Positions 49,248 to 63,890 of a stretch of 64,000 nucleotides of DNA are shown here, piece after piece. Below the pieces are notes generated by a model. The model made no database searches. It saw nothing but the letters and a program-made list of their open reading frames with translations, and had not been told where the DNA came from. Position 1 is the first letter of the stretch. Each line of letters starts with the position of its first letter. Both the position numbers and the translations under genes were made by a program. The stretch is from NCBI GenBank assembly GCA_036490655.1, contig DASXDM010000016.1, positions 83,135-147,134 on the forward strand. Direction: 5' to 3'. Origin of the DNA: Verrucomicrobiia bacterium (lineage in GTDB: Bacteria; Verrucomicrobiota; Verrucomicrobiia; Limisphaerales; UBA11358).

Positions 49248-49673
49248 ATGTACGACAGTGCCATTATCCAGCCCTACCTGTTCTTCGATGGAAAATGCGA
49301 AGAGGCCATCGAGTTTTACAAACAAGCGCTCGGCGCAAAAGTGAACCTGCTGATGCGATACAAAGAGGCTCCCCCGGAAGCACAGCCGAACATCGCCCCG
49401 GGCAACAAAGACAAGGTGATGCATGCTTCCTTGCAGATCGGCCAGGCCACGATGCTGGCCTCCGACGGGCATTGCCAGGGCAAACCGAAGTTTGAGGGCA
49501 ACGCCATCTCACTCATTTTGAAAACCCCGGCGGAAGTCGATAAAGCCTTCCAGGCCTTGTCCGAGGGTGGCCAGGTGTCGATGCCGGCCGGAGAAACGTT
49601 TTTCTCCAAACGTTTCGGCATGCTCACCGATAAATTCGGCGTGATGTGGATGGTGCTGGTGCATTCGAACTGA
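49248..49673 (+). CDS. VOC/PhnB-YjdN-like protein
   Basis: IQPYLFFDGKCEEAIEFYKQALGA...VMHASLQIGQATMLASDG...FGVMWMV. ATG at 49248 chosen within the track ORF 49197. Confidence 0.8.
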   Translation: MYDSAIIQPYLFFDGKCEEAIEFYKQALGAKVNLLMRYKEAPPEAQPNIAPGNKDKVMHASLQIGQATMLASDGHCQGKPKFEGNAISLILKTPAEVDKAFQALSEGGQVSMPAGETFFSKRFGMLTDKFGVMWMVLVHSN

Positions 49674-49683
49674 AAGGAATTTT

Positions 49684-49801
49684 ATGGCCGCAAAATCTGC
49701 CAATGATTATCTGACACTCATCGCGCGACTCCTCCTGGGGCTGGTCTTTTTCGTGTTTGGCCTCAACGGCTTCCTGCAATTCATCCCGCAACCCAAAGAA
49801 A
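49684..49801 (+). pseudogene. 5' fragment of a DoxX-family membrane protein gene, interrupted by a transposon
   Basis: MAAKSANDYLTLIARLLLGLVFFVFGLNGFLQFIPQPKE then reads into the IS end and stops at 49858-60. The N-terminus parallels the intact paralogue at 53617-53988. Confidence 0.8.
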
Positions 49802-49960
49802 GGGGACTATATACTTATTCACCCTTGGTTATTTTGGGTGAAATTTTCTTTTGTTCTTGACATGCCGCCACAGGCTGTCACGATGCCATTCTCCGCGACG
49901 GCGGGGTTAGAGAGGAAGGTGGTGCCAGATGAGGGTACTGTAGTTTTTTGTACGAACCAC

Positions 49961-49987
49961 GGGCCGCAAGACGTTGCGGCCCCTTTT
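49961..49987 (+). terminator. Perfect 9-bp hairpin plus T-tract inside the transposon's left arm
   Basis: GGGCCGCAA-GACG-TTGCGGCCC then CTTTT. The orientation fits a plus-strand transcript; its function is unclear. Confidence 0.35.
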
Positions 49988-50005
49988 GCTCTCTGGCACC
50001 AAAAT

Positions 50006-50131
50006 TCATGATGATTTCTTCTTGGGTTTTCGGGGTTTAAGTTTCCGTGCGCCGCTGCCGCAGGCGATACAGGTTAAAATACTGCTGAAGGTTCCCTTGA
50101 TTGGCTGGATGATTTTCTTCTTCTTTTTCAT
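50006..50131 (-). CDS. Candidate 41-aa basic micro-ORF translationally coupled to the transposase
   Basis: Minus-strand ATGA: the transposase stop (50130-50128) overlaps ATG 50131-50129. Translation MKKKKKIIQPIKGTFSSILTCIACGSGARKLKPRKPKKKSS. Confidence 0.25.
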   Translation of the reverse strand: MKKKKKIIQPIKGTFSSILTCIACGSGARKLKPRKPKKKSS

Positions 50132-51048
50132 GCTGTCAAACTTTCGTAAGTTAATTGACCAGTGTCGGCTGCGCTTTGAACTGCGCCGTGGAAAATTCTC
50201 TGCGGTGGATTCAATCGGTTGTTAAACCGGACAACAAACTCGTCAACGTAGCGTTGAAGGTGTTTCTTGCTCATGCTGTGATATGTTCCGTGATAACCTC
50301 GTTTGAATAAAGCCCAGAATGATTCGATTCCGTTGATGTGGGCTTTGCCGCGAACGTATTCTCCAACGCCATGTTGGACAACACCGCGTTTGTAAATTCT
50401 GCCAAGCCGGTTATAACCCATCCACTCGTCAGTATAAAGGGTGGCGCCGCGAGCCATGTTCGATTTGAGTTGATAGTGGAGAGTGTCCATACCTGTTGAT
50501 TCGATAACTTGGGCGCGGACTTTGCCAGTTCGCGTGCGGAGACCAAAGATGGGAACCTTTCCATACGTTCCCCTGCCTTTCATTATCTCTCGCCGACGGC
50601 GACTATGCATGTTTTTGGCTTTGCCGCCGATGTAAGTTTCATCAGCTTCGACTTTACCGCGCAGCTTGCGGGTTTCCTGCTTGTGAGCCTTGCGAATCCG
50701 GTGCGCCATAAACCAAGCGGTTTTCTGCGTAACTCCCAGATGTTTGGAAAGTTGGATTGACGACATTCCTTTGGCGCTTGATGAAAGCAGGTAAATTGCC
50801 ATAAACCATTTTCGGAGTGGTAATTTACTGTCTCCAAATATCGTACCGGTCTTGATAGAAAAGTCTGACTTGCACCCGGCGCAGCGGTACCGTTTACCGC
50901 CGGAGAATTTATAAATCTCGGCATGTTCACAGTACGGGCAATATTCCCCAGCGGCGAATCGGATTTTGGCAAATTCCTTACGACAGATTTCCTCAGTATG
51001 GAAATAATCCATAAATTCCACGAGACTTTTGAATTTGAATTTTATCAT
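50128..51048 (-). CDS. IS1595-family (ISXO2-like) transposase
   Basis: N-terminal zinc ribbon CPYCEH...YRCAGCKSDFS, then LPLRKWFMAIYLLSSSAKGMSSIQLSKHLGVTQKTAWFMAHRIR, and DDE region ...VEADETYIGG...LYTDEWMGY. Confidence 0.9.
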   Translation of the reverse strand: MIKFKFKSLVEFMDYFHTEEICRKEFAKIRFAAGEYCPYCEHAEIYKFSGGKRYRCAGCKSDFSIKTGTIFGDSKLPLRKWFMAIYLLSSSAKGMSSIQLSKHLGVTQKTAWFMAHRIRKAHKQETRKLRGKVEADETYIGGKAKNMHSRRRREIMKGRGTYGKVPIFGLRTRTGKVRAQVIESTGMDTLHYQLKSNMARGATLYTDEWMGYNRLGRIYKRGVVQHGVGEYVRGKAHINGIESFWALFKRGYHGTYHSMSKKHLQRYVDEFVVRFNNRLNPPQRIFHGAVQSAADTGQLTYESLTA

Positions 51049-51090
51049 TTTTGACTTTAGGTTGTTATTTAAGTTTTACCAAGTAACGAA

Positions 51091-51354
51091 ATGCAAATTT
51101 TATTCGTCTGCGAAAAATCCGAAAATGCGTCAGAAGACGCTTGGAATAGATTCGTATCGAAAGTTTCAGATATTCCAGAAAATAAATCCTCGCCATCGCT
51201 ACGTAGTATGGAGGTTCTGTCACTAATTCAGAAAGATTACGACGGACTGCTTCTGAGCAAAATGATTTCCGCCGCCGAAGTTGCGCGGTTCCCATATAAA
51301 TTGATTTTTATTAAGGAATATTCGGAGAAGGATTTTAACCCGTCTCACCTGTAA
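51091..51354 (+). CDS. Hypothetical protein (87 aa), transposon passenger
   Basis: ORF only, in low-GC passenger DNA. Confidence 0.3.
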   Translation: MQILFVCEKSENASEDAWNRFVSKVSDIPENKSSPSLRSMEVLSLIQKDYDGLLLSKMISAAEVARFPYKLIFIKEYSEKDFNPSHL

Positions 51355-51357
51355 AAG

Positions 51358-51858
51358 TCATTTTAGTAAGATTAATTCTGTTGTGATTGGAATTTTATTG
51401 GTCACAGTCACGCCATATACCCAGGGCGTACCATAGTCGTAAAGTTCAAGCTGTCTGCCGTCCACATTCACAACGCCAATACGCAATGCGTATGCTTCAA
51501 TTTTCTGACCTTCCGCCACATCAATTATAGCGTCTGGATAATTAGTTATTGCGACTGTTTTCGTGTCGAACGGTTTCGCGTTTGGGTCAAATTCAAACGC
51601 CTCTGCCTCTGCAATAACCAACCCGTCTTCAACATTGTTAACATTCCCTAATATGGTATAAAACCCAGGAAAGCCGTTGCGGGTTTTAATTAAATCATCG
51701 AAATTAAACACCTTATTTCCAAATCTTCGGAAATTATCCGGCGCTTTATACCAATTTGTTGTGAGTGCAGTTTTGAAGATGGTATTCGTCGTAAATTGGT
51801 TGGTTTGGGATTTTGTTGAGATTGCAGACAACAAAAGTATTGCCAGAATAGTTTTCAT
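51358..51858 (-). CDS. Hypothetical secreted protein (166 aa), transposon passenger
   Basis: MKTILAILLLSAISTKSQ signal-like N-terminus. The start at 51858 lies 11 nt after the upstream gene's stop. Confidence 0.5.
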   Translation of the reverse strand: MKTILAILLLSAISTKSQTNQFTTNTIFKTALTTNWYKAPDNFRRFGNKVFNFDDLIKTRNGFPGFYTILGNVNNVEDGLVIAEAEAFEFDPNAKPFDTKTVAITNYPDAIIDVAEGQKIEAYALRIGVVNVDGRQLELYDYGTPWVYGVTVTNKIPITTELILLK

Positions 51859-51868
51859 TTTGAGCCTG

Positions 51869-52234
51869 TTAAGGTTTTCCAGATTCATCCATAGTAGATG
51901 GTTGATTGACGGCCAAACGAAGGTCGGCAACATCCAAATCGACCATATTGATTCCATTTGTGAGAATGCTGTAATCGGAATCCTCTACCGAAGCCAAACT
52001 GGCCTGACAACTTGACATAAGCTCAAAGTTGCTTTCCTGGGATTCTGACTTAGTTTCCAAAAACTGGACGCGCTGGATTAGCTGTGAAAGTTCGTTTGTT
52101 AAATTGTTTACAGTTTCGACTCCTTGGGTTGATTGTTTTTTATCGGCGTTTAAATCTGGCGTCCTGAACTCTGATACAATCAATGCTGTCAATGCCGCTA
52201 TGATTCCACTGATTATGTAATTGGTGACTTTCAT
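51869..52234 (-). CDS. Hypothetical N-terminally anchored coiled-coil protein (121 aa), transposon passenger
   Basis: MKVTNYIISGIIAALTALIVSEF anchor. ATG at 52234 lies 20 nt downstream of RNA-motif copy 1. Confidence 0.5.
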   Translation of the reverse strand: MKVTNYIISGIIAALTALIVSEFRTPDLNADKKQSTQGVETVNNLTNELSQLIQRVQFLETKSESQESNFELMSSCQASLASVEDSDYSILTNGINMVDLDVADLRLAVNQPSTMDESGKP

Positions 52235-52253
52235 ATTTGTTTCGTTTTGAAGC

Positions 52254-52404
52254 GGGAAAAGAAAAGGCGTGCAGCCAGCACACCCGATTAGAGGGCTGCA
52301 ACGCCCTGAAGAAAGATGCACCAAGCCACACGCCAACTGGCGTGGAGCCGGTCAAGGGGTTCTTCGAGAAATGTTGCAGTTTCTAATCGCCCTTACCGCT
52401 TCAC
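52254..52404 (-). ncRNA. Conserved structured-RNA-like motif, copy 1 (unassigned family)
   Basis: Minus-strand sequence is nearly collinear with 57536-57685. Long-range pair CGAUUAGA/UCUAAUCG. Terminal hairpin GGUGUGC-UGGCU-GCACGCC followed by UUUUCUUUU. Confidence 0.5.
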
Positions 52405-52671
52405 TAAAATGTCAATTTAAGGATATTGGAAGGGTTGACTCAGGCAAGCTCATTTTGTTATTGACAAGGCGTTTTGAAACACCAAACTGCGGCTGTCCGC
52501 GCAAGGGTGAACGCGGAGTGAATTTGGGCGGGGTTGGAAAAACGTTTTGCTCATTCGCATAACGCTTATTTTCTTATGACGAGAAAGTAATTACCAACCC
52601 CGCCCGCCTAAAATCATACTTTGACCCGTTTTGTGGTCAAGGGTGAATAGGTATATAGTTCCCCAAAGAAA

Positions 52672-52961
52672 TGCCGCCCGGCGCAGCCGATTTCTTCGGC
52701 GCGCTCATGAAAACCGGCTACATGATCCCGCTGATTTTCGCGACCCAAACCCTCGGCGGCGCCTTGCTCCTGCTGAATTGTTTTGTGCCGCTGGCCCTTG
52801 CGTTGCTCGCGCCGGTCATCGTCAACATCATCCTCTTCCACCTGTTCATCGCGCCTTCGGGGATCCCGATCGCATCCGTCGTGGTGGCGCTGGAACTCTA
52901 CCTGGCCTGGTCGTATCGGCGGTTTTATCTGCCGATGCTGGCGTGCCGGGCCAGGCCCTGA
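52672..52961 (+). pseudogene. 3' fragment of the interrupted DoxX-family gene
   Basis: Joining 49684-49801 to 52672-52961 restores one 135-codon frame ...FIPQPKEMPPGAADFFGALMKTGYMIPLIF...LLAPVIVNIILFHLF..., collinear with the paralogue (FLPMPPMQGPGAAFMGAMFETHY...GPVVVNILCFHTF). Confidence 0.8.
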
Positions 52962-54763: not shown

Positions 54764-55459
54764 TCAGTTCAAGTCGAACAACAAAACCTGTGACGGTTTG
54801 TTGGCCGAGAGTTCCAATTTCGTTTCCTGGCTCACCGCCGCCGCGTCCCCGGCGGAAAGCGTCTTGCCGTTCAACACGACTTCGCCTTCAGCGACATGGA
54901 CCCAGGCATTGCGGTTGGCCGCAAGCGCATGCGCGGTCTTCTGTCCCGCATCCAATTTCGCCAGCCACAGGTCTGCGTCCTGATGGATGGCGATCGAGCC
55001 ATCGCGGCCCGTCTTGCTCGTCATCAGGTGCAATTGGCCCGTGGGCGTGTCGCGCAGGGTCTTCTCCGCATACCGCGGCTTGAGACCCTTGGCATCGGGC
55101 ATGATCCAGATCTGCAACAGGCGCACCGCCTCGTCTTTCGACGGATTGAACTCGCTATGTTGCACCCCGCTGCCGGCGGACATGTATTGCAGGTCGCCCG
55201 CGCGGATGATACTGCCGTTGCCCATGGAATCCTTGTGCTGGAGCGCGCCACTAAGCACATACGTGACGATCTCCATATCGCGATGCGGATGGGCGCCAAA
55301 GCCCTGCCCCGGCATCACCAGGTCGTCATTGATCACCCGCAGGCTGCGGAACCCCATCCAATTCGGATCATAATAGTCCGCAAAACTGAAGGAATGATAA
55401 GTGTCCAGCCAGCCATGTTCGGCGTGGCCCCGTTCATTTGCTTTTCGTATAGTCATCAT
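54764..55459 (-). CDS. Pirin-family protein
   Basis: RKANERGHAEHGWLDTYHSFSFADYYDP...GFGAHPHRDMEIVTYVLSGALQHKDSMGN. Confidence 0.9.
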   Translation of the reverse strand: MMTIRKANERGHAEHGWLDTYHSFSFADYYDPNWMGFRSLRVINDDLVMPGQGFGAHPHRDMEIVTYVLSGALQHKDSMGNGSIIRAGDLQYMSAGSGVQHSEFNPSKDEAVRLLQIWIMPDAKGLKPRYAEKTLRDTPTGQLHLMTSKTGRDGSIAIHQDADLWLAKLDAGQKTAHALAANRNAWVHVAEGEVVLNGKTLSAGDAAAVSQETKLELSANKPSQVLLFDLN

Positions 55460-55468
55460 GGAAAGACT

Positions 55469-55912
55469 CTACCGCGCGCCTGTGATCCTGTGAAATATCA
55501 TGTTTCTTGCCTTAGTATAACTTAAAGGTATACTGCCCGTCCACATTGGTGCGTGGTAGGGTGAGCATGTGGAATTTAAAACCAAAGAATTGTCCGGATC
55601 GACTCGAAGAATTGGAAGCGAGTTTGCGTTTGTATCGATTGGAGAGATTGGGTTTATAACTGACAACAAGGGGCTGGCAGATTTAATCATGGCTTTGAAT
55701 CGGGTTCTGGAGGAGGACGCCGCTTTCCCATTCGTGGAAGAAACCTGTTTGTCCCAAACCAATCTTCCGCAGGATACTTCATCAAAAAAAACCCGCTGAT
55801 GTAAAAGAATTTGCTCCTCCGCCTCTGAATCATTCGTTCCCGGTGGCAGATCAAAATAAGTTCCAGTCTCATCGTCCACATAACGTTGTTCATTTATTTT
55901 CCGTAACTTCAT
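55469..55912 (-). CDS. Hypothetical protein (147 aa); the 3' end runs across the transposon's left terminus
   Basis: ORF only. Its last ~20 codons lie outside the IR boundary, so the native C-terminus is uncertain. Confidence 0.3.
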   Translation of the reverse strand: MKLRKINEQRYVDDETGTYFDLPPGTNDSEAEEQILLHQRVFFDEVSCGRLVWDKQVSSTNGKAASSSRTRFKAMIKSASPLLSVINPISPIDTNANSLPILRVDPDNSLVLNSTCSPYHAPMWTGSIPLSYTKARNMIFHRITGAR

Positions 55913-55924
55913 TCCTCAAATAGT

Positions 55925-56959
55925 CTAGCGAGCAGAAAGAAGTTCTTCAACCGTCCAAACGTGGTCAGTCAGTCCTGCCGCCATTGCTGGCGTCATCCCG
56001 ATAGCACTGTGAACACGGCAGAAGTTAAAATGAGCAACGAACAAGGCAACAGCATGGCGATGGTTTTCGGTCTTCTTTGAGAAATTGATAGTCCGACGAA
56101 CAAACCTGCGGTTAAACGTCCTCAGGCTGAGGTTTGTCCGCTCACAATGGCCGATGGTGGCGTGTTTCATGTCAGGATAGCCAATGCGAGGACTGCGATA
56201 CACTTTGACCAGTTTTGGGGCGAAGAAGACGCGGTTTCCTGTATAACGTGGATCGGTCCTGAAACGCTTGGTCTCCGTCGCGTAATGGCAGTTGTCACCC
56301 AGAATGTCCTTAACCGCCCCAGCGCTTCCATGAAGTGCCACATATCCTCTGAATGAGTCGGTGGTGAGTTGGAACCGATTGGTGATGCGTGAGCCTAAAT
56401 CCTTCAAAAACCCTTCCGTTTCCTCGCCTGTGCGTTTTCCGACCCTATAACTGACAATCAGCTTCTCGTCCTTGGCGACCGCCAGGAACGTCCACATTGA
56501 ACCGCGCTCTGGGTCATCCTCATTCTCACCGTTGGGCTTCTGTTTGATATAAGAGAACACCTCGTCGCATTGGACATATGGAATGGTCAGGTTTCGGACT
56601 TTGGAATCCAGCAGACGGGCGCAATGCTCTCCAGCAGATTCAAGGATGCGTAAAACCGTATCTTCGTCCACACATGCCAGCCGGCCAGCCGCACGAATAC
56701 CGACCGTCTCAGCCAGCATTGAGACTATCTGAGCCGCCTTGGCGCGATCTGTGCGTATGCCATCCAAAGGCTGCGTTTCACTGAAAGACTTGGCACAGCG
56801 GATGCACTTGAACCTCTGGACAGTCCCATTTCGATTCTTGAAACGACCACACTTTTTCACCTTTCCGCTACAACAATGACAGTTCAATTTCTCCTTTCTT
56901 AATATCGTTGACTTATGTTTAACATAAGTTAGTCTCAATGCAAGACTTTTGTTAAACAA
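55925..56959 (-). CDS. IS1-family-like transposase (fused zinc-finger + DDE form)
   Basis: CHCCSGKVKKCGRF...FKCIRCAKSF zinc-finger. HTH-like region. C-terminal HCERTNLSLRTFNRRFVRRTINFSKKTENH...FNFCRVH, typical of IS1 InsB. No in-frame ATG near the 5' end: the track start is a TTG, and an alternative TTG at 56887 is preceded by AAGGAG. Confidence 0.65.
   Translation of the reverse strand: MFNKSLALRLTYVKHKSTILRKEKLNCHCCSGKVKKCGRFKNRNGTVQRFKCIRCAKSFSETQPLDGIRTDRAKAAQIVSMLAETVGIRAAGRLACVDEDTVLRILESAGEHCARLLDSKVRNLTIPYVQCDEVFSYIKQKPNGENEDDPERGSMWTFLAVAKDEKLIVSYRVGKRTGEETEGFLKDLGSRITNRFQLTTDSFRGYVALHGSAGAVKDILGDNCHYATETKRFRTDPRYTGNRVFFAPKLVKVYRSPRIGYPDMKHATIGHCERTNLSLRTFNRRFVRRTINFSKKTENHRHAVALFVAHFNFCRVHSAIGMTPAMAAGLTDHVWTVEELLSAR
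56911..56929. promoter_or_regulatory. 9-bp perfect inverted repeat ACTTATGTT-T-AACATAAGT between the divergent transposase and RHH genes
   Basis: Read directly from the sequence. Lies in the 5' region of the IS1-like transposase gene. Confidence 0.35.
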
Positions 56960-56963
56960 AACT

Positions 56964-57146
56964 ATGAAAAATAAAATGGGCAGACCTCAAATTGTGCCAG
57001 GTGAGTCAAAAAGCATCCTGATTGGGGCAAGGTTCTCCCCTGACGAATCAAAGAGAGTTCACACCGCTATTGGCAAGTCTGGGAAAACGAAGTCAGAATG
57101 GGTCAGAAAGACCTTGCTTTCGGCGGCTGGCAAAGATACTGTCTAA
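56964..57146 (+). CDS. Small RHH/MobC-like DNA-binding protein (60 aa)
   Basis: MKNKMGRPQIVPGESKSILIGARFSPDESKRVHTAIGKSGKTKSEWVRKTLLSAA: GRP...beta-strand...two helices, like CopG/MobC-type proteins. Confidence 0.45.
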   Translation: MKNKMGRPQIVPGESKSILIGARFSPDESKRVHTAIGKSGKTKSEWVRKTLLSAAGKDTV

Positions 57147-57535
57147 GCATCTCGGCGACCCCAAGTTGCCTGTCGGCGGACGAAATGAACTGTGCAAAAG
57201 GAAATTTCGTCCGCCGTTTTATTTTCTTGGCGACTGATTCTGGCGTCATCAGCCCCCGCGTTATATCCAGGCCATAAAAGTCCCGCTCCTCTCGCCGGTT
57301 GAAACCCGTTGTAAGACTGGCGGGCGGCAATCAGAGCGGTAAATTACTTCATTGATGTTTTACGCTTTCAACAGCGCATTACCGATCAAATCGGCAACAA
57401 TCAGCATCCTCTCATTGTTCTGATTTATGGTCAATAATTTATTAACGTAAAGTGCTTATACAAAGCGGATTGTATAGAGCATTGGATGGGCTTGACTATC
57501 ACACTCAAACCGGATTGTATGGTTATTGAAATTTA

Positions 57536-57685
57536 GTGAAGCGGTAAGGGCGACTAGAAATTACAACATTTCCGAGAGAAACTCCCCTGCCACGCTCCAC
57601 GCCCATCGGGCGTGTGGTTTGGCGCATCTTTCTCAAGGGCGTTGTAACCCTCTAGTCGGGTGTGCTGGCTGCACGCCTTTTCCCT
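57536..57685 (+). ncRNA. Conserved structured-RNA-like motif, copy 2
   Basis: GTGAAGCGGTAAGGGCGACTAGAAA...TCTAGTCGGGTGTGCTGGCTGCACGCCTTTTCCC. Pair CGACUAGA (57551-58) / UCUAGUCG (57651-58). Terminal hairpin 57659-57677 plus a U-tract. Confidence 0.55.
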
Positions 57686-57730
57686 GTCTTGCTTCAATAA
57701 TAAATGACAGAAAACACATAAAATCTTAGA

Positions 57731-57869
57731 GCACACAGGAACTATCACATTCTTAAAAGAAGACTCTGCTCCAACGCGGGAAACCGGGCTTGGCGTGTAA
57801 TTGCAATGCATTCTTCTTGGGCTGTGATAGGCCTCTGTGGGGTGTGTTCGGTTGCACGCCATTTTTATT
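57731..57869 (+). ncRNA. Conserved structured-RNA-like motif, copy 3 (tandem with copy 2, more diverged)
   Basis: CACAGG (57734-39) / UCUGUG (57834-39). Hairpin GGTGTGTTCGGTTGCACGCC (57841-60) plus ATTTTTATT. Ends 20 nt before ATG 57889. Confidence 0.45.
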
Positions 57870-57888
57870 GCTCTGATGGAAGGAAGTT

Positions 57889-58086
57889 ATGAAAAAGATA
57901 TTGGTCGCTATTACCTGCATGCCGTTGATCCAAGGTTGTGTCGTTCAAAGAATAATGGATTCTCAGGATCGACAACATTATTCGGAATACCTGGAACAAG
58001 TGGATCAAACCAATTTGGAGCGCGAGAAATCCCACCTGCCCGACGAGAAGCCGATGGCGTTCGATGAATGGGATGGTAAAAAATAA
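57889..58086 (+). CDS. Small lipoprotein (65 aa)
   Basis: MKKILVAITCMPLIQGC lipobox. GGAAGGAAG Shine-Dalgarno-like sequence 3-11 nt upstream. Confidence 0.55.
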   Translation: MKKILVAITCMPLIQGCVVQRIMDSQDRQHYSEYLEQVDQTNLEREKSHLPDEKPMAFDEWDGKK

Positions 58087-58093
58087 GGGACAT

Positions 58094-58453
58094 ATGCCAT
58101 CCGATTTCCATTTTGCCACAGCCATGATAGAACTGGTCGAGAAAAGACCCTCTCAGGGACTTCTGGCTCGATGCTATTCCGAAGCCGAAGGAGATGAAGC
58201 TAAGGCAAGGGCAAAATACGTTGCCATGCGAGCCAAGGAAATTGAGGAGCAGGAAGAAGCCGCCATCAAACAGTATGAGCAACAGGTAAAGAGAAAGGAA
58301 TCGGAACGCCAAAAGGTGATTAATTCTTTCAATTTTGAAATGTTCCAAAAAGAATACAAGCGTGAAATACCACTCCGCTATTATGGCCGAAAAGAGCAAC
58401 AGGATATGTTCAAAGAATGGAGAAATCGGAAGCTGAGAGAAATGGAGGCGTAA
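58094..58453 (+). CDS. Hypothetical protein (119 aa), charged coiled-coil C-terminal half
   Basis: ATG at 58094 preceded by AAGGGA. Tight packing with its neighbours. Motif GLLARCYSEAEGDEAKARAKYVAMRAKEI. Confidence 0.45.
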   Translation: MPSDFHFATAMIELVEKRPSQGLLARCYSEAEGDEAKARAKYVAMRAKEIEEQEEAAIKQYEQQVKRKESERQKVINSFNFEMFQKEYKREIPLRYYGRKEQQDMFKEWRNRKLREMEA

Positions 58454-58455
58454 AA

Positions 58456-58791
58456 ATGGAAGAGTCAAAACAGACAGATACCGATCGGATAAAACATCTT
58501 GAGTCTGTGAATAGAGCACTCAATCGAGATATTGAGTGGTTAAAAGGCAAGATTGAAATGGATGATAAGGCAAAAAAAGATGCTAAAAAGAGTGTGGTTA
58601 ACGGGGCATTGGTAATCATCATGATGATTGTTGGCCTTATCGGATGGTCGGCAATCCTTTACTTCTGCATTGCAAATTTTAGCCCATTCCCAGCGGTAAT
58701 GGTTTTGTTCGTATTATCCTGGTTGTGGTCATGGATTTGCTACGTGCCACTTCGGAAAATTGATAATAAACAAAAGGAAAACACAAAATGA
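58456..58791 (+). CDS. Hypothetical membrane protein (111 aa)
   Basis: Coiled-coil N-terminus, then two hydrophobic helices (GALVIIMMIVGLIGWSAILYFCIA; AVMVLFVLSWLWSWICYV). ATGA overlap with the next ORF. Confidence 0.45.
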   Translation: MEESKQTDTDRIKHLESVNRALNRDIEWLKGKIEMDDKAKKDAKKSVVNGALVIIMMIVGLIGWSAILYFCIANFSPFPAVMVLFVLSWLWSWICYVPLRKIDNKQKENTK

Positions 58792-59006
58792 ACAACCTGC
58801 AATGTTACGACGAAATTACCGACCACACAATCCATTCAGTTTACCAAATATGGTCGCATAAACAGTTATCAAATAGTGAGCAGGTTCAGGTGATTGGGAA
58901 GAAATCACTTCACACCATCCTGAGAACTGACATCTTTTATCGAGGTCAACCTGGCTACCAGATTGTGGAAATCATCGCGGGCGACGGCTGGGAGGGCGCG
59001 GAATAA
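58788..59006 (+). CDS. Hypothetical protein (72 aa)
   Basis: ORF coupled by ATGA to the upstream gene. Its 3' end overlaps a convergent 80-aa ORF (58905-59147, minus strand); which of the two is real is unresolved. Confidence 0.3.
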   Translation: MNNLQCYDEITDHTIHSVYQIWSHKQLSNSEQVQVIGKKSLHTILRTDIFYRGQPGYQIVEIIAGDGWEGAE

Positions 59007-59181
59007 ATCGGCGGCAATCATTGCAGCGACATGCTCGGGCATCTTAAATGCCCGAAGCTCATTTATGGATGAGCCGAGGAGCAGTGTATATTCTCCGCCG
59101 TTATTTCTGACGGCGTGCACGTTTGCTTGGGTTTCAGGAACATTCATGGCATTGATTGGTGGTTTTAATTATGTTGTTTCA

Positions 59182-59469
59182 ATGAATCTCAAGAACGGCC
59201 TCTTTTGGTATCGTGATGAGGCGACGTATCTCCGCTTCCGAGAAATTATTGATGACAAGGATCAACTTGTGTCTCCTTACTCTGTTTGGGTTGCAAAGGC
59301 TGAGAAATTTATTGAGGAAAAGGCCGAGCAGGGGACTTTTCTTGTCAAAATCAAAGCTGACCCCGATGAGTTTGTCTCGTGGTGTAATATCAATTCCAGA
59401 AAACCTGACGGGAGAGCCAGGATGCTTTTTGCAATAGAGAAGGCACGCCATATAGGAGGCAATGGATAA
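59182..59469 (+). CDS. Hypothetical protein (95 aa)
   Basis: MNLKNGLFWYRDEATYLRFREIIDDKDQL...DPDEFVSWCNINSRKPDGRARMLFA. Internal ATG of the track ORF 58963-59469. Confidence 0.4.
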   Translation: MNLKNGLFWYRDEATYLRFREIIDDKDQLVSPYSVWVAKAEKFIEEKAEQGTFLVKIKADPDEFVSWCNINSRKPDGRARMLFAIEKARHIGGNG

Positions 59470-59820
59470 TTTGCCTGAAAATGTTACCCCATCCCGTTCA
59501 TCGGAGATTTCAAATATTTTTGCCGCCACAGCACCAATGTGGACGGGCAGTATACTTAAAGGTATGGTGTCCATCTAGATTGGTGCTGGAATTTATCGCT
59601 TGCGTTTCCCACGCCGTGGCTCAGCTTTGGAACGTTAGTCTGATTCCAATACCAATGAAAAATATCGTCCTCGCAATCGGTTGCTGGCTATTGAGCTTGT
59701 TCTTTTTCTATTTCGGAATTATTCACTTCATAAAACTTACACGGACATCCCCTGATGCCACGGTGTAAAATAGGTTTATACAGTACCCCTGCATCCCGGT
59801 ATTATATAGGGTGTTAGACC

Positions 59821-60901
59821 GGCCAAATAAAACTCGCAAGTTGCTTATTTTAAGTTGCTTAGACAGCGAATGTCTAAGGCTAATTGTTAAAATTCAGGCA
59901 TGATTAAGAGTAAAAAACAGTTTGAGTCTCAAAAGGGGCAAAGCTTGCCTAACATGACTGAATACGAAGCCAGAATGCATCTTGAAGGTATTCGGTGGCC
60001 AAATGGGCCAGTTTGTCCTCAATGCAAAAGTTCAAACGTCTATGAAATGCAAGGAATGAGCATCCGTCCTGGTTTACGCCGTTGCCGAGAATGCAAAAAG
60101 CAATTCACTGTAACGGTTGGGACCATTTTTGAAGATTCACACCTGCCTCTGTCTATTTGGATTCAAGCTTTTCACCTGATTTGTGCCAGCAAGAAAGGAA
60201 TTTCATCGTTGCAGCTTCAAAGAAATCTTGGATTAGGATCATACCGGACTGCTTGGTATTTGTCCCATCGCATCCGTTTAGCCATGAAAACAAACCCTAA
60301 AAATTTTACTGGAACTGTTGAGGTGGATGAAACTTACGTGGGAGGAAAGCCTCCGGCTGGCATTAAATCAAAACGCGGTCGTGGAACTTACAAAACTCCG
60401 GTCGTCGTAGTCGTTGAGCGCGATGGTAGAGCTTATTCCAGACCAGTTGACCGCGTTACTTCAGCTAATCTCAGGAATGTCATCAGAGAATGCGCTGCCG
60501 ATGCTTCAGCAATTCACACTGACGAATTTGCAAGTTATCGGAGTTTGAGCAAGCACTTTGCTGCTAAACATGAATTTGTTAATCACGGTGAAGGAGAATA
60601 TTCCAGAAACGGAGTGAACACCAATACAGCTGAAAGTTACTTTGCCCTGCTGAAACGTGGAATCCGTGGAACTTTTCATCATATCAGCAAAAAGCATTTG
60701 CACCGTTACTGCAACGAGTTTGAATTTCGATGGAACAGCCGAAAGCACCTAGATTTAGACAGACGGGATTGGGCATTAAAGCACACCGAAGATAAATTGT
60801 TGAGATTCCGTGAACTGGTTGGAAATTGAGTTCTTAAATAAGTAACGAGGCGTCCTGGCCTTTTATCCTAAGTATGGAACTGTTGAGATTACGATTTGGC
60901 C
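59821..60901 (+). mobile_element. IS1595-family insertion sequence, second and unrelated copy (~1.08 kb)
   Basis: Imperfect terminal repeats GGCCAAATAAAACTCGCAAGTTGC (59821-) versus reverse complement of the right end GGCCAAATCGTAATCTCAACAGTTCC (-60901). No convincing target duplication seen. Confidence 0.5.
59900..60829 (+). CDS. IS1595-family transposase
   Basis: CPQCKSSNVYEM...RRCRECKKQFTVTVGTIFEDSHLPLSIWIQAFHLICASKKGISSLQLQRNLGLGSYRTAWYLSHRIR; VEVDETYVGG; IHTDEFASY. Confidence 0.9.
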   Translation: MIKSKKQFESQKGQSLPNMTEYEARMHLEGIRWPNGPVCPQCKSSNVYEMQGMSIRPGLRRCRECKKQFTVTVGTIFEDSHLPLSIWIQAFHLICASKKGISSLQLQRNLGLGSYRTAWYLSHRIRLAMKTNPKNFTGTVEVDETYVGGKPPAGIKSKRGRGTYKTPVVVVVERDGRAYSRPVDRVTSANLRNVIRECAADASAIHTDEFASYRSLSKHFAAKHEFVNHGEGEYSRNGVNTNTAESYFALLKRGIRGTFHHISKKHLHRYCNEFEFRWNSRKHLDLDRRDWALKHTEDKLLRFRELVGN

Positions 60902-60997
60902 TTTTACAGTCGTCGTTTTCAACAGTTCCGGAATAAATCCTTACGGAGTGGGGGCCGAGCCTCGTTACACAAATTTAGCCCAAGTCCTGCTTTATGT

Positions 60998-61372
60998 CTA
61001 TTTTCCATCTTTTTCTTTGTCCCATCCAATTTTAAATCCAGCCTTATAGCCATTCATCCAATCTTGGCGGTCTCCTGCATTATCAAATTTCATGTCAGCC
61101 GTATCACGACGGCCTTTTGAATCAAATTCTTCATCGGTTGGATAAGAATCTCCTCGATTATAGGCAGCTATTCCATCAACTGCTCCAATCCATGCGCCGG
61201 ACTCAAATACGCTGTTTGTACCAGATTGTGACGTTTGGTCAGATGAATTAGTATTTTGGTTGGATTGAGACGTAGTGCTCTGGTCAGGCAATAACGAACC
61301 AATCAAAATAAGAAGTGTAAAACTGACAATGACTCCAACCACAATTTTAGCCCAAAGAGGCAATTTTTTCAT
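60998..61372 (-). CDS. Hypothetical N-terminally anchored S/T/N-rich protein (124 aa)
   Basis: MKKLPLWAKIVVGVIVSFTLLILIGSLL anchor. ATG at 61372 lies 41 nt downstream of RNA-motif copy 4. The longer track ORF reads through the motif. Confidence 0.5.
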   Translation of the reverse strand: MKKLPLWAKIVVGVIVSFTLLILIGSLLPDQSTTSQSNQNTNSSDQTSQSGTNSVFESGAWIGAVDGIAAYNRGDSYPTDEEFDSKGRRDTADMKFDNAGDRQDWMNGYKAGFKIGWDKEKDGK

Positions 61373-61412
61373 ACATTGAACCCTTTCTGGATGATTAGCG
61401 ATTGGAAGATGA

Positions 61413-61552
61413 CAGGAAAAAGGCGCGAACCTGACGCACCCAGCTAGAGGCACTTGGAAGAGCCCGCCACAAGACACGCCAAGCCGCGCCCAGTGAGGGC
61501 GTGACTCGGACGGGTTTGTGGTATGAAAGTTTCCAAGTTTTCTAGCCACCCG
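61413..61552 (-). ncRNA. Conserved structured-RNA-like motif, copy 4 (most diverged)
   Basis: Minus strand: GGCUAGA/UCUAGCU long-range pair. Terminal hairpin GGUGCG-UCAGGUU-CGCGCC plus UUUUUCC. Shares CUAGAAA, CACGCCC, UUGGCG, CUCUAG and CGCCUUUU blocks with the other copies. Confidence 0.45.
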
Positions 61553-62233
61553 TGACCGACCTACGCTAAATTGTTATGTCGGCCATAACCATCCCAAGAG
61601 GGTGGAAATTGTCAACAAATTTTTGACCCTGAGCGAGAAAGTGAATTTATGAGAACAGTTATCGTATTCGCAGAATTGCCAAAAATGACCGATACAGTCT
61701 CAACCATAACGAGATGGCAAGATTTTTTGAAAAATGCAGAAGGTTCCTACAGGCCAACCGCAGAAAGTGCCCACCCGACCATAAATCTGTGGCAGCTACC
61801 CTTAAATAGTGGATTGCCATTCTTGGCCAAGTTATTTCAGTTCTCGGAACTTTATCAAATTCCCATTCATGCCCTAATCTTGGACGAGCCTCCAGAGTGG
61901 ATAAAATATCCCCCAACCAGTTAAGAATTTTGCTTTCTTTCATGAAGACCAGAACACTTTCCGTCATTCACCCTGACAGACTCTCAGGATGCCAGTATAA
62001 CAAAAGTTTTATGAAGTGAATAATTCCGTTCTATTTTATCCGAAACACCATCCAAATGGGATATGTGCGGTCACGCGGTGGGCTGGTTTTAACGAGAAGC
62101 AAAAACCCATTCCAGTTTTGGGCGGGAGTTGTAGCCTTATTTTTAGGTGCTGCTTTTCTCATTGTGTTCGGATTAATCGTCATTTTCGGAAAGGTTAAAC
62201 TATGAGATTACATCAGCCGCGCTGGAGCCAACA

Positions 62234-62317
62234 TCAGATTGGACTCGCAAGTAACTCCTCAACCGTCCAAACATGGTCTGTGAGTCCTGATGCCATTGCC
62301 GGTAAAGCGCTTGTGGA
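62234..62317 (-). pseudogene. 3'-terminal remnant of an IS1-like transposase gene
   Basis: Minus-strand translation ...PAMASGLTDHVWTVEELLASPI* parallels the C-terminus of the intact copy (...TPAMAAGLTDHVWTVEELLSAR*). DNA CTCAACCGTCCAAACATGGTC..GAGTCCTG..GCCATTGC aligns with 55947-55992. Confidence 0.55.
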
Positions 62318-62349
62318 AATCTTGTAATCAGAACGATGCCAAATTGATT

Positions 62350-62530
62350 TTCTGCCGTCCCTGCGGGACTCAATTTGATTTAAATTCTAACCCCACCGAT
62401 AAATCGGTGGGCTATCGCCTATCGGCCTCCGGCCTTTTGTTAGCGCCTTCGGCGCGACCGACAATAGCCCGCCGTTTCAACGGCGGGTGGCGGTGGCAAT
62501 AGTGACGGAGTCCCGTTAGGGACGGCAGAA
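62350..62530. repeat. 181-bp MITE-like element with 22-nt terminal inverted repeats and three internal hairpins
   Basis: TTCTGCCGTCCCTGCGGGACTC (62350-71) versus reverse complement of 62508-62530 = TTCTGCCGTCCCTAACGGGACTC. Internal hairpins CCACCGAT-AA-ATCGGTGG, GCGCC-TTC-GGCGC and CCGCCG-TTTCAA-CGGCGG. Confidence 0.55.
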
Positions 62531-62611
62531 CGAATTATCGATAGCGTTATCAAACTTTGAGGCTTGCAAGGACTCGCCACATAATTCAGCTTTAAACGCT
62601 AGCATTGGAAA

Positions 62612-62989
62612 ATGGGGATTTTTGTATTCATTTTTATCGCTAATCTTGCCGTCTGTATCGGAGTTTGGTTCTTGACCAAGAAACTGCCGATATGGATGCG
62701 ATTGCTTGTTGTCACATTTCTTCTTGCAGTCGTGATTACGCCTGTCGGCGGAGCCGGCGAGGGAGGTGCTTGGATCATGCCCCTGGGGATCATGCTAACA
62801 TTTTTATTATATAATGTAATCATGGGCGTTGGCGACTACGGCGATCTCCATGCTTTATTTAGGGAAAATTTTGCTCTCGGCCTCTTCTTGGAAATTTGGG
62901 GCATTACCTATCTTCTCTGTATAGTTGTTGTGTTAATTCGCTACTTGATCAAAATAGGCAAAAGACCTAGGACGACAGTGGTGAAATGA
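62612..62989 (+). CDS. Hypothetical membrane protein (125 aa)
   Basis: Four hydrophobic segments. ORF only. Confidence 0.4.
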   Translation: MGIFVFIFIANLAVCIGVWFLTKKLPIWMRLLVVTFLLAVVITPVGGAGEGGAWIMPLGIMLTFLLYNVIMGVGDYGDLHALFRENFALGLFLEIWGITYLLCIVVVLIRYLIKIGKRPRTTVVK

Positions 62990-62996
62990 TACTAAA

Positions 62997-63890
62997 ATGG
63001 AACTACGCCATCTCCGTTACTTCATCGCGGCGGCGGAACAGGAAAATGTTTCGCGCGCGGCGGTGAAACTGCGCGTCTCGCAGCCGGGCGTCAGCCGGCA
63101 GATCCGGGATCTGGAAGAGGAGATCGGGTTCAAACTGTTTGAGCGCAGCGCCAGATCGTTGAAGTTGACCAAAGCGGGTAAAATCTTCCTCACGGAAGCG
63201 CGCGCCGTCCTGCAACGGGCCGATGACGCAGTGAAAACTGCGCGCGCAGCGGCCAACAAACCCGGTGGCGAATTGCATGTGGGCTATGCGCCGTCATTGA
63301 CCGTCCGCATCCTCCCGCAGGCGTTGCGGGTCTTCCAGGAAAAATATCCTGAAGTGCGCGTCTCGCTCCATGATCTGTCCACGGAAGAGATGTTCGCCGG
63401 CGTGCGCGGGGGAAAATTGCAGGTGGCGCTCACCGTGCAGCCCAAGGCCAAATCGCTGCGCGACCTGGATTTCAAACTGCTCGCGCGGTACACCATGAGC
63501 ATCGCGGTCGCGCCGAAGCACCGGCTGGCGAAATTGAAGTCTGTCACCCTGGCGCAATTGCTGGAAGAGCCGCTCATCGGTTACAGCCGCGAAGAATATC
63601 CCGAATACCATGCGCATCTCGCGCGGATCTTCGCCCCGGGACCCATCCCCGAGGTGGTCGAGGAGCATGATGGCATCGCCAGCATCGTGGCCGCGGTGGA
63701 ATCAGGCCGCGGCTTTGCGCTGGTGCCGGATTCTTTCGCCTGCATGGCCGGGCCCCGATTAAGGATCATTCCATTGAACCCCAGGGGTGAGTTGATCCCC
63801 GTCGGGGCGATCTGGAAGAAAAAGGCGGCCACGCCCTTGATCGAGAAATTTGTCGAGGCGGCAGGAGGAGGAGAGTTAAACCGCGAATAG
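62997..63890 (+). CDS. LysR-family transcriptional regulator
   Basis: MELRHLRYFIAAAEQENVSRAAVKLRVSQPGVSRQIRDLEEEIGFKLFER HTH, plus a LysR substrate-binding domain. Confidence 0.9.
   Translation: MELRHLRYFIAAAEQENVSRAAVKLRVSQPGVSRQIRDLEEEIGFKLFERSARSLKLTKAGKIFLTEARAVLQRADDAVKTARAAANKPGGELHVGYAPSLTVRILPQALRVFQEKYPEVRVSLHDLSTEEMFAGVRGGKLQVALTVQPKAKSLRDLDFKLLARYTMSIAVAPKHRLAKLKSVTLAQLLEEPLIGYSREEYPEYHAHLARIFAPGPIPEVVEEHDGIASIVAAVESGRGFALVPDSFACMAGPRLRIIPLNPRGELIPVGAIWKKKAATPLIEKFVEAAGGGELNRE

Follow-up and report, generated by a model that had tools for sequence, protein, structure and literature searches.

In the window (the whole 64,000-nucleotide stretch of DNA analyzed here), which comes from a metagenome-assembled genome (MAG) of a soil-type Verrucomicrobium of the class Verrucomicrobiia (3.97 Mb in 40 contigs), a gene for a DoxX-family membrane protein is split in two by an insert of 2,862 bp. 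The gene lies among genes of quinone/electrophile type, encoding glyoxalase/VOC, FMN reductase, nitroreductase and pirin proteins, and an intact DoxX paralogue is located 650 bp away. The insert is bounded by inverted repeats and encodes a transposase of the IS1595 family, a very short open reading frame (ORF) coupled to it, and approximately 1.6 kb of cargo that comprises a structured leader RNA (referred to as R1), a gene of a small secreted protein family (orf166) and a further ORF (orf121). We conclude that a complete insertion sequence (IS) with passenger DNA has disrupted the DoxX gene. The coordinates of all features are listed in Table 1.

Table 1. Features of the split DoxX gene, the inserted element and related sequences, in window coordinates.
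Feature	Position	Strand	Basis
DoxX 5′ fragment: codons 1–39 and the first base of codon 40	49684–49801	+	Collinear with intact 135-aa homologues
Left copy of the target-site duplication, CAAAGAAA	49794–49801		Direct reading
Complete IS1595-family transporter IS, 2,862 bp, transposase on the minus strand	49802–52663	−
Left terminal inverted repeat, GGGGACTATATACTTATTCACCCTTG, with the terminal motif GGGRAYTATATAC common to relatives	49802–49827
9-bp G+C-rich hairpin followed by a T-run, terminator-like	49961–49982	+	Pattern scan only
Micro-ORF, 41 aa, basic; ATG overlaps the transposase TGA (ATGA)	50006–50131	−	Comparison with relatives
IS1595-family DDE transposase, 306 aa, intact frame	50128–51048	−	Pfam, NCBIfam, alignment
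orf87, 87-aa ORF on the opposite strand, doubtful gene	51091–51354	+	Open frame only
orf166, 166-aa protein with signal peptide, uncharacterized small secreted family	51358–51858	−	HMMER scan
orf121, 121 aa, hydrophobic N-terminal segment, orphan passenger ORF	51869–52234	−
Structured leader RNA of about 160 nt, model R1	52250–52409	−	Covariance model, folding, compensatory changes
R1 copies in the window	52250–52409 (−), 57531–57693 (+), 57712–57874 (+), 61406–61571 (−)		Covariance model
Promoter-like site TTGACC-16-TATGAT (10/12), inward-reading, with its start inside the right inverted repeat	52613–52640	−	Pattern scan only
Right terminal inverted repeat, reverse complement GGGAACTATATACCTATTCACCCTTG	52638–52663
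Right copy of the target-site duplication, CAAAGAAA	52664–52671		Direct reading
DoxX 3′ fragment: remainder of codon 40 to codon 135 and stop	52672–52961	+
Intact DoxX paralogue, 123 aa	53617–53988	−	54% identical to the reconstructed gene, E 7e-37

The terminal inverted repeats of the insert are 26 nt long and complementary at 24 of the 26 positions (92%), and no other of the 170 inverted pairs found in a scan of positions 49600–52900 was as long or as good. The two arms start GGGGAC and GGGAAC, i.e., both with a leading GG. Abutting them on either side is a perfect 8-bp direct repeat, so that the unit measures 2,870 bp when one repeat copy is included. A preliminary description of this DNA had given the inverted repeats as 23/25, which is essentially equal, and had reported the 8-bp repeat that we found to be perfect on both sides; it had also called the insert a passenger-carrying transposon, and the passenger DNA indeed lies inside the inverted repeats and is bracketed by the duplication. 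The duplication encloses the complete 2,862-bp unit, which must therefore have arrived by one transposition event. The G+C content of the insert is 0.444, compared to 0.556 and 0.558 in the two flanks.

Joining 49684–49801 to 52672–52961, with the insert and one repeat copy deleted, restores an open frame of 408 nt (135 codons). The product of this frame clears the gathering score of the Pfam DoxX profile (PF07681; 27.0 versus 23.6 bits), and neither fragment alone matches that profile. Queried against 5.8 billion protein clusters, the joined sequence returned 3,417 homologues. Each of the six closest (89, 86, 85, 84, 84 and 82% identity) has a length of exactly 135 aa. The alignment of the eight closest intact homologues (80–89%), which are annotated as DoxX, reads FIPQPK[E/T/D]-MP[P/A]GA and is ungapped at the junction; in four of the eight the string PQPKEMP is exact. 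At the nucleotide level, the closest intact gene (L151) reads CCCAAAACCATGCC where this genome has CCCAAAGAAA joined to TGCC, and two more distant orthologues from the same genus (74–75% nucleotide identity) are also uninterrupted across the site. The insertion falls at codons 37–40, in a CCC-AAA-GAA-ATG stretch, and the predicted uninterrupted site is ...CCCGCAACCCAAAGAAATGCCGCC.... In combination, the shared length of 135 aa, the collinearity and the lack of any indel at the junction bear out the earlier statements that both parts form one 135-codon frame and that the pre-insertion allele can be reconstructed to the base. An origin of the two halves in different paralogues, which the preliminary description had named as a possible objection, was rejected because both are about equally similar to the same homologues: P0002, the closest intact homologue, shares 87% identity with the N-terminal part and 90% with the C-terminal part, and thus both parts belong to one gene. 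In its present state, the frame of the 5′ fragment continues into the IS, giving a 58-aa ORF that ends at 49860, and gene callers report the 3′ fragment as a 96-aa ORF (P0028) starting at 52671.

The transposase matches DDE_Tnp_IS1595 (PF12762) over the full profile (positions 1–153 of 153; 1.1e-40), Zn_ribbon_IS1595 (PF12760; 31.6 versus 25.4 bits) and the NCBIfam model NF033547, “IS1595 family transposase” (209.8 bits; cutoff 75). A zinc ribbon, C37-x2-C40...C56-x2-C59, can be read from its sequence. In an 11-sequence alignment with ten relatives (37–62% identity), residues D136, D207, E242 and K249 (the K at +7) are invariant, as is N239. The IS1595 family is defined by 8-bp target duplications and by a zinc finger combined with the DDE_Tnp_IS1595 domain, with the finger occurring in all groups except IS1016 (PMC8101967). 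The element described here combines this domain with an N-terminal zinc finger, an 8-bp duplication, inverted repeats that start with GG, and the D-D-E-K residues, in agreement with the family named in the preliminary description. The termini GGGGACTAT and GGGAACTAT, together with D-D-E-K, are compatible with a tentative placement in the ISNwi1 subgroup, whose terminal consensus is ggnnatTAT with a DDEK motif. Transposases of IS1595 type occur in 77 of the 151 genomes of the genus, some of which have at least 15 matches. The closest relative of the transposase is 62% identical and, since none found exceeds this value, the element would be a new IS by ISfinder practice.

IS1595-family members that carry passengers are termed transporter IS (tIS), as PMC11891212 reports after Siguier, Gagnevin and Chandler (2009, Res Microbiol 160:232). 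Like these, our element has an 8-bp duplication, short inverted repeats starting with GG, and passenger genes inside the repeats. The cargo cited for tIS consists of regulators and methyltransferases, whereas here it consists of a structured leader RNA and small secreted or membrane proteins. The element appears to be a previously unrecorded representative of an established category. With a probability of roughly 0.9, we consider the locus to hold a single intact tIS of the IS1595 family whose insertion into the DoxX gene produced the 8-bp duplication and disabled the gene. Taken alone, such a disruption by a known mobile-element family is a textbook case: as in IS insertional inactivation generally, the ORF is cleanly split, direct repeats flank the insert and the prior allele can be recovered, and nothing about this is unusual.

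Because the genome is a MAG of 40 contigs, and mobile elements are often sites of mis-assembly, we considered whether the IS had been mis-joined into the DoxX gene across a repeat during assembly or binning. The window matches a 261-kb JGI contig (sample 3300036790) over 11.3 kb and a separately built Logan contig (run SRR11833918) over 7.6 kb, in each case at 100% identity and with both junctions included. The two contigs exclude a one-off mis-assembly, and they do not represent an independent population. The element is also single-copy in the genome, hence there is no repeat to mis-join, and a precise 8-bp duplication with in-frame restoration is unlike a chimera. An artefact is accordingly hard to credit.

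The check for further copies that the preliminary description had proposed found only this one full copy in the 3.97-Mb genome. Nothing else at 90% identity or above was detected in 15 billion proteins, where the protein cluster at that level contains this element only, and JGI metagenome contigs gave no further exact match to the 30-mer at the left end of the element. The interrupted allele, as seen through P0028, is present on three to four contigs.

Several observations weigh against the insertion as reconstructed here, or against parts of it. There is only a single known copy, so the mobility of this cargo rests on one insertion event. No same-species empty site was found: the best intact allele among the 5.8 billion protein clusters is 89% identical, with none at 90% or above, and an exact 30-mer of the predicted empty site had 0 matches in JGI metagenome contigs, where the window's own record may be masked. 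The base-level precision of the reconstruction thus depends on homologues of 80–89% identity. The two same-genus orthologues noted above have one additional residue at the junction, so the loop at this position is of variable length. At codon 32 (window 49777–49779), the reconstructed protein carries Q, in contrast to the H of all ten homologues compared, one of which is the paralogue. This H32Q change could be drift after inactivation, which would disfavor a very recent insertion. Two mismatches separate the inverted repeats from each other and, within the cargo, orf121 and orf87 may not be genes, as both lack homologues.

These points bear most directly on the age of the event, which the preliminary description had called probably recent. 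If the insertion were old, the element would be a fixed, inactive relic, and the DoxX halves would have stayed open by chance or because little time was needed. An old insertion would fit the H32Q change at an otherwise invariant position, the two inverted-repeat mismatches and the absence of an intact allele at 90% identity or above, all of which, with the single copy, are either neutral or unfavorable to a very recent event. It would also fit a single-copy element with no sign of spread, and an interrupted allele that is the sole allele seen on the contigs counted above. However, the duplication is perfect at 8 of 8 positions, neither half of the DoxX gene has acquired a stop codon or a frameshift, the transposase has an uninterrupted frame and retains every invariant residue, and the low G+C content of the insert has not been ameliorated toward that of the flanks. 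On this balance we regard an old insertion as unlikely, although it retains some weight, and a young one as plausible; the word “recent” can stand in that sense, but the event cannot be dated. The intact duplication, together with relatives found at many different sites, suggests that the element is competent for transposition, and it is probably still active.

To place the element among its kin, we delimited 18 relatives by the common terminal motif GGGRAYTATATAC (loci L013–L018, L021, L029, L030, L045, L049, L077, L080, L081, L139, L142 and L144–L146). They come from Verrucomicrobiota, Desulfobaccales, Saccharibacteria, Streptococcus, Bacteroidota and Proteobacteria and measure 2.2–6.0 kb between the inverted repeats. 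Perfect 8-bp duplications flank 17 of the 18; these are 85% A+T, with the consensus YAAAWTWW, and the present target CAAAGAAA agrees with its first four positions. Such an AT-rich target preference would limit insertion to rare A-rich words in a host of 54–56% G+C. The preliminary description had considered the element large for its family. This is true in comparison with cargo-free IS but not within this clade, for which cargo and size are normal, given the size range of the delimited relatives and the description of tIS from the IS1595 family.

We also weighed the possibility that the insert is composite, with a minimal IS (transposase and micro-ORF) and a separately acquired cargo that are not mobilized as one unit. 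The G+C content differs internally, being 0.471 for the transposase and micro-ORF and 0.419 for the cargo part. Moreover, the leader RNA and secreted-protein module occurs outside transposons at 4 of the 19 loci of the orf166 family, and a transposase lies within 1.5 kb of only 5 of the 29 other R1 loci. Against this, the single duplication around the whole unit means that it arrived at once, and neither a second inverted-repeat pair nor an internal duplication was found within the insert. Between the same termini, each of the 18 delimited relatives has an additional 1.3–5 kb of DNA, and they have duplications of their own. One of them even holds the same kind of module: the relative at L145 (genome G048) is 2,802 bp long, is flanked by the duplication TAAAATAT, and is laid out as R1 leader, Zn-ribbon membrane ORF, transposase and micro-ORF. 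A composite of independently moving parts is thus very improbable, and we treat the insert as one tIS.

A second IS1595-family transposase is encoded 7 kb downstream in the window (59900–60829, + strand; 309 aa) and is approximately 37–40% identical to the first. The GGGRAYTATATAC terminal motif was not found around it, and the protein thus belongs to a different subgroup.

The micro-ORF was the only one of four small ORFs of the element that was recovered when these were compared by tblastn with 80 transposase loci. We compared the coupled position in L011, L013–L018, L020, L021, L137–L139, L141, L143, L145 and L146. An ORF starts from the same ATGA in all relatives examined except L019, which is a short contig. 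The motif K-x3-P-[IVL]-[KN]-x2-F-x2-[IVA]-L-x2-[IV]-A is common to thirteen elements from several phyla, most of which have a basic tail after it. In two of these (L018 and L020), it makes up the N-terminal ~25 residues of a D12-class (Dam-type) adenine methyltransferase whose PF02086 domain starts from residue 40. Two other elements (L022 and L147) have an N6_N4 methylase in this coupled slot, without the motif. By these comparisons the micro-ORF is conserved across the relatives and is not a chance open frame, and its product may assist the transposase or DNA binding as a cofactor. A limited look at the literature on the IS1595 family found no description of an ATGA-coupled micro-ORF.

The leader RNA lies in a 170-nt stretch of the insert (52247–52416) that is 83% identical to window 57525–57697 on the other strand. 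The two copies differ by paired changes that preserve the helices, and both fold far better than shuffled sequences (z of -4.8 and -7.3). An alignment of 12 sequences, which includes ten further copies from the same genus, has 14 base pairs with compensatory double changes. The R1 covariance model detected the motif in 67 of the 151 genomes of the genus, at 1–5 copies each, and in 38 of the 107 genera of the order. This genome has five copies, four of them in the window (Table 1) and the fifth at G000:C2:30369-30533. The copy at 61406–61571 lies approximately 580 nt beyond the stop codon of the second transposase, on the opposite strand. No Rfam 15 family matched R1 at E ≤ 1.

R1 typically consists of a structured part that ends in a nearly invariant hairpin and U-run, usually followed within 15–30 nt by the ATG of a small ORF, often with a purine-rich stretch just before the ATG. 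In the element, this hairpin is GGGUGUGC-UGGCU-GCACGCC, and the hairpin with its U-run ends 15 nt before the ATG at 52234. The ORFs that follow R1 vary and include small lipoproteins, proteins with signal peptides and Zn-ribbon membrane proteins. The transposases near the five loci mentioned above are of IS1595 type in two cases and IS1-like in three, and with so few of the 29 loci near a transposase, R1 is not transposon-specific. Three other identities for R1 were rejected: a 6S RNA or other housekeeping RNA, given the multiple copies in variable contexts; an integron attC site, given that the AAC/GTT positions covary and two tandem copies have no intervening ORF; and a retron, given that no reverse transcriptase is nearby.

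The remaining cargo yielded nothing meaningful in Pfam, NCBIfam, PHROGs, PADLOC or PDB profile searches. A word-indexed search with the orf166 protein returned only itself, and the protein could have passed for an orphan; a full HMMER scan gave 40 distant homologues of similar length (E ≤ 1e-3), and that label was dropped. The family shares the motifs TTNW..PNFR..GQLYN and LELWDYGTP..V.TN and is present in 27 of the 151 genomes of the genus; neither orf166 nor its family has a Pfam, PDB, PHROG or PADLOC match. An AlphaFold2 model of orf166 made without an alignment had a pLDDT of 30.7 and was unusable. The four loci at which R1 lies directly upstream of an orf166-family gene (L156, L167, L171 and L172) are outside any IS1595 element; the module of leader RNA and orf166-family gene is thus native to the lineage and was captured by the IS. 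No homologue of orf121 was found in the 150 other genomes of the genus, and none of orf87 in the 80 transposase loci (by tblastn) or in Pfam, protein and profile searches.

On these grounds the following course of events can be proposed. The tIS would have entered the A-rich 8-mer CAAAGAAA by DDE cut-and-paste or copy-in transposition. The insertion would have duplicated the 8 bp and inactivated the DoxX gene, leaving the 58-aa fusion ORF and the 96-aa C-terminal ORF. On the minus strand, the order is promoter-like site, leader RNA, membrane-anchored orphan ORF (orf121), secreted protein (orf166), transposase and coupled 41-aa peptide. The promoter-like site at the right end and the leader RNA may govern expression of the cargo and possibly that of the transposase. 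We noted a 15-nt inverted repeat, GGGCGGGGTTGGAAA / TTACCAACCCCGCCC (93%), with a 50-nt loop (window 52526–52605) in the interval that separates the leader RNA from the element's right end. At the other end, the terminator-like hairpin may shield the element from read-through off the DoxX promoter. Loss of the DoxX protein is presumably buffered by the neighboring 54%-identical paralogue.

The comparisons also permit a broader, tentative reading, which we consider possible but doubtful, namely that this clade of IS1595 elements is a modular vehicle with two conserved accessory parts, a coupled peptide and a slot for leader-RNA cargo, as opposed to a carrier of random passengers. The retention of the peptide across phyla and its fusion to Dam-type methyltransferases suggest a module that interacts with the transposase or with DNA. 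The cargo slot could, in Verrucomicrobiota, repeatedly hold a host-derived cassette of leader RNA and small secreted protein. If the reading were true, the transposon would spread a regulated expression cassette. More immediately, the element can serve as a cleanly delimited and probably functional reference for Verrucomicrobial tIS of the IS1595 family (ends, YAAAWTWW target, transposase and micro-ORF). It also provides context for the R1 family, as it indicates that the RNA and the small-protein genes downstream of it can be moved by a transposon.

Beyond the split gene and its paralogue, the window differs in arrangement from the closest related genome. There (L151:7141-8408), a divergent LysR gene follows within ~370 bp after the pirin gene, and in the part of this window compared with it (54764–63000) the pirin gene is followed by ~7.5 kb of low-G+C mobile DNA. 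The comparison supports the view that this mobile island was inserted between the pirin gene and its regulator. Two adjacent, opposed matches to the Rfam Acido-Lenti-1 RNA lie at the island's far edge, at 62392–62435 (+) and 62442–62487 (−), and score 41.9 bits (gathering score 37) and 31.8 bits, respectively.

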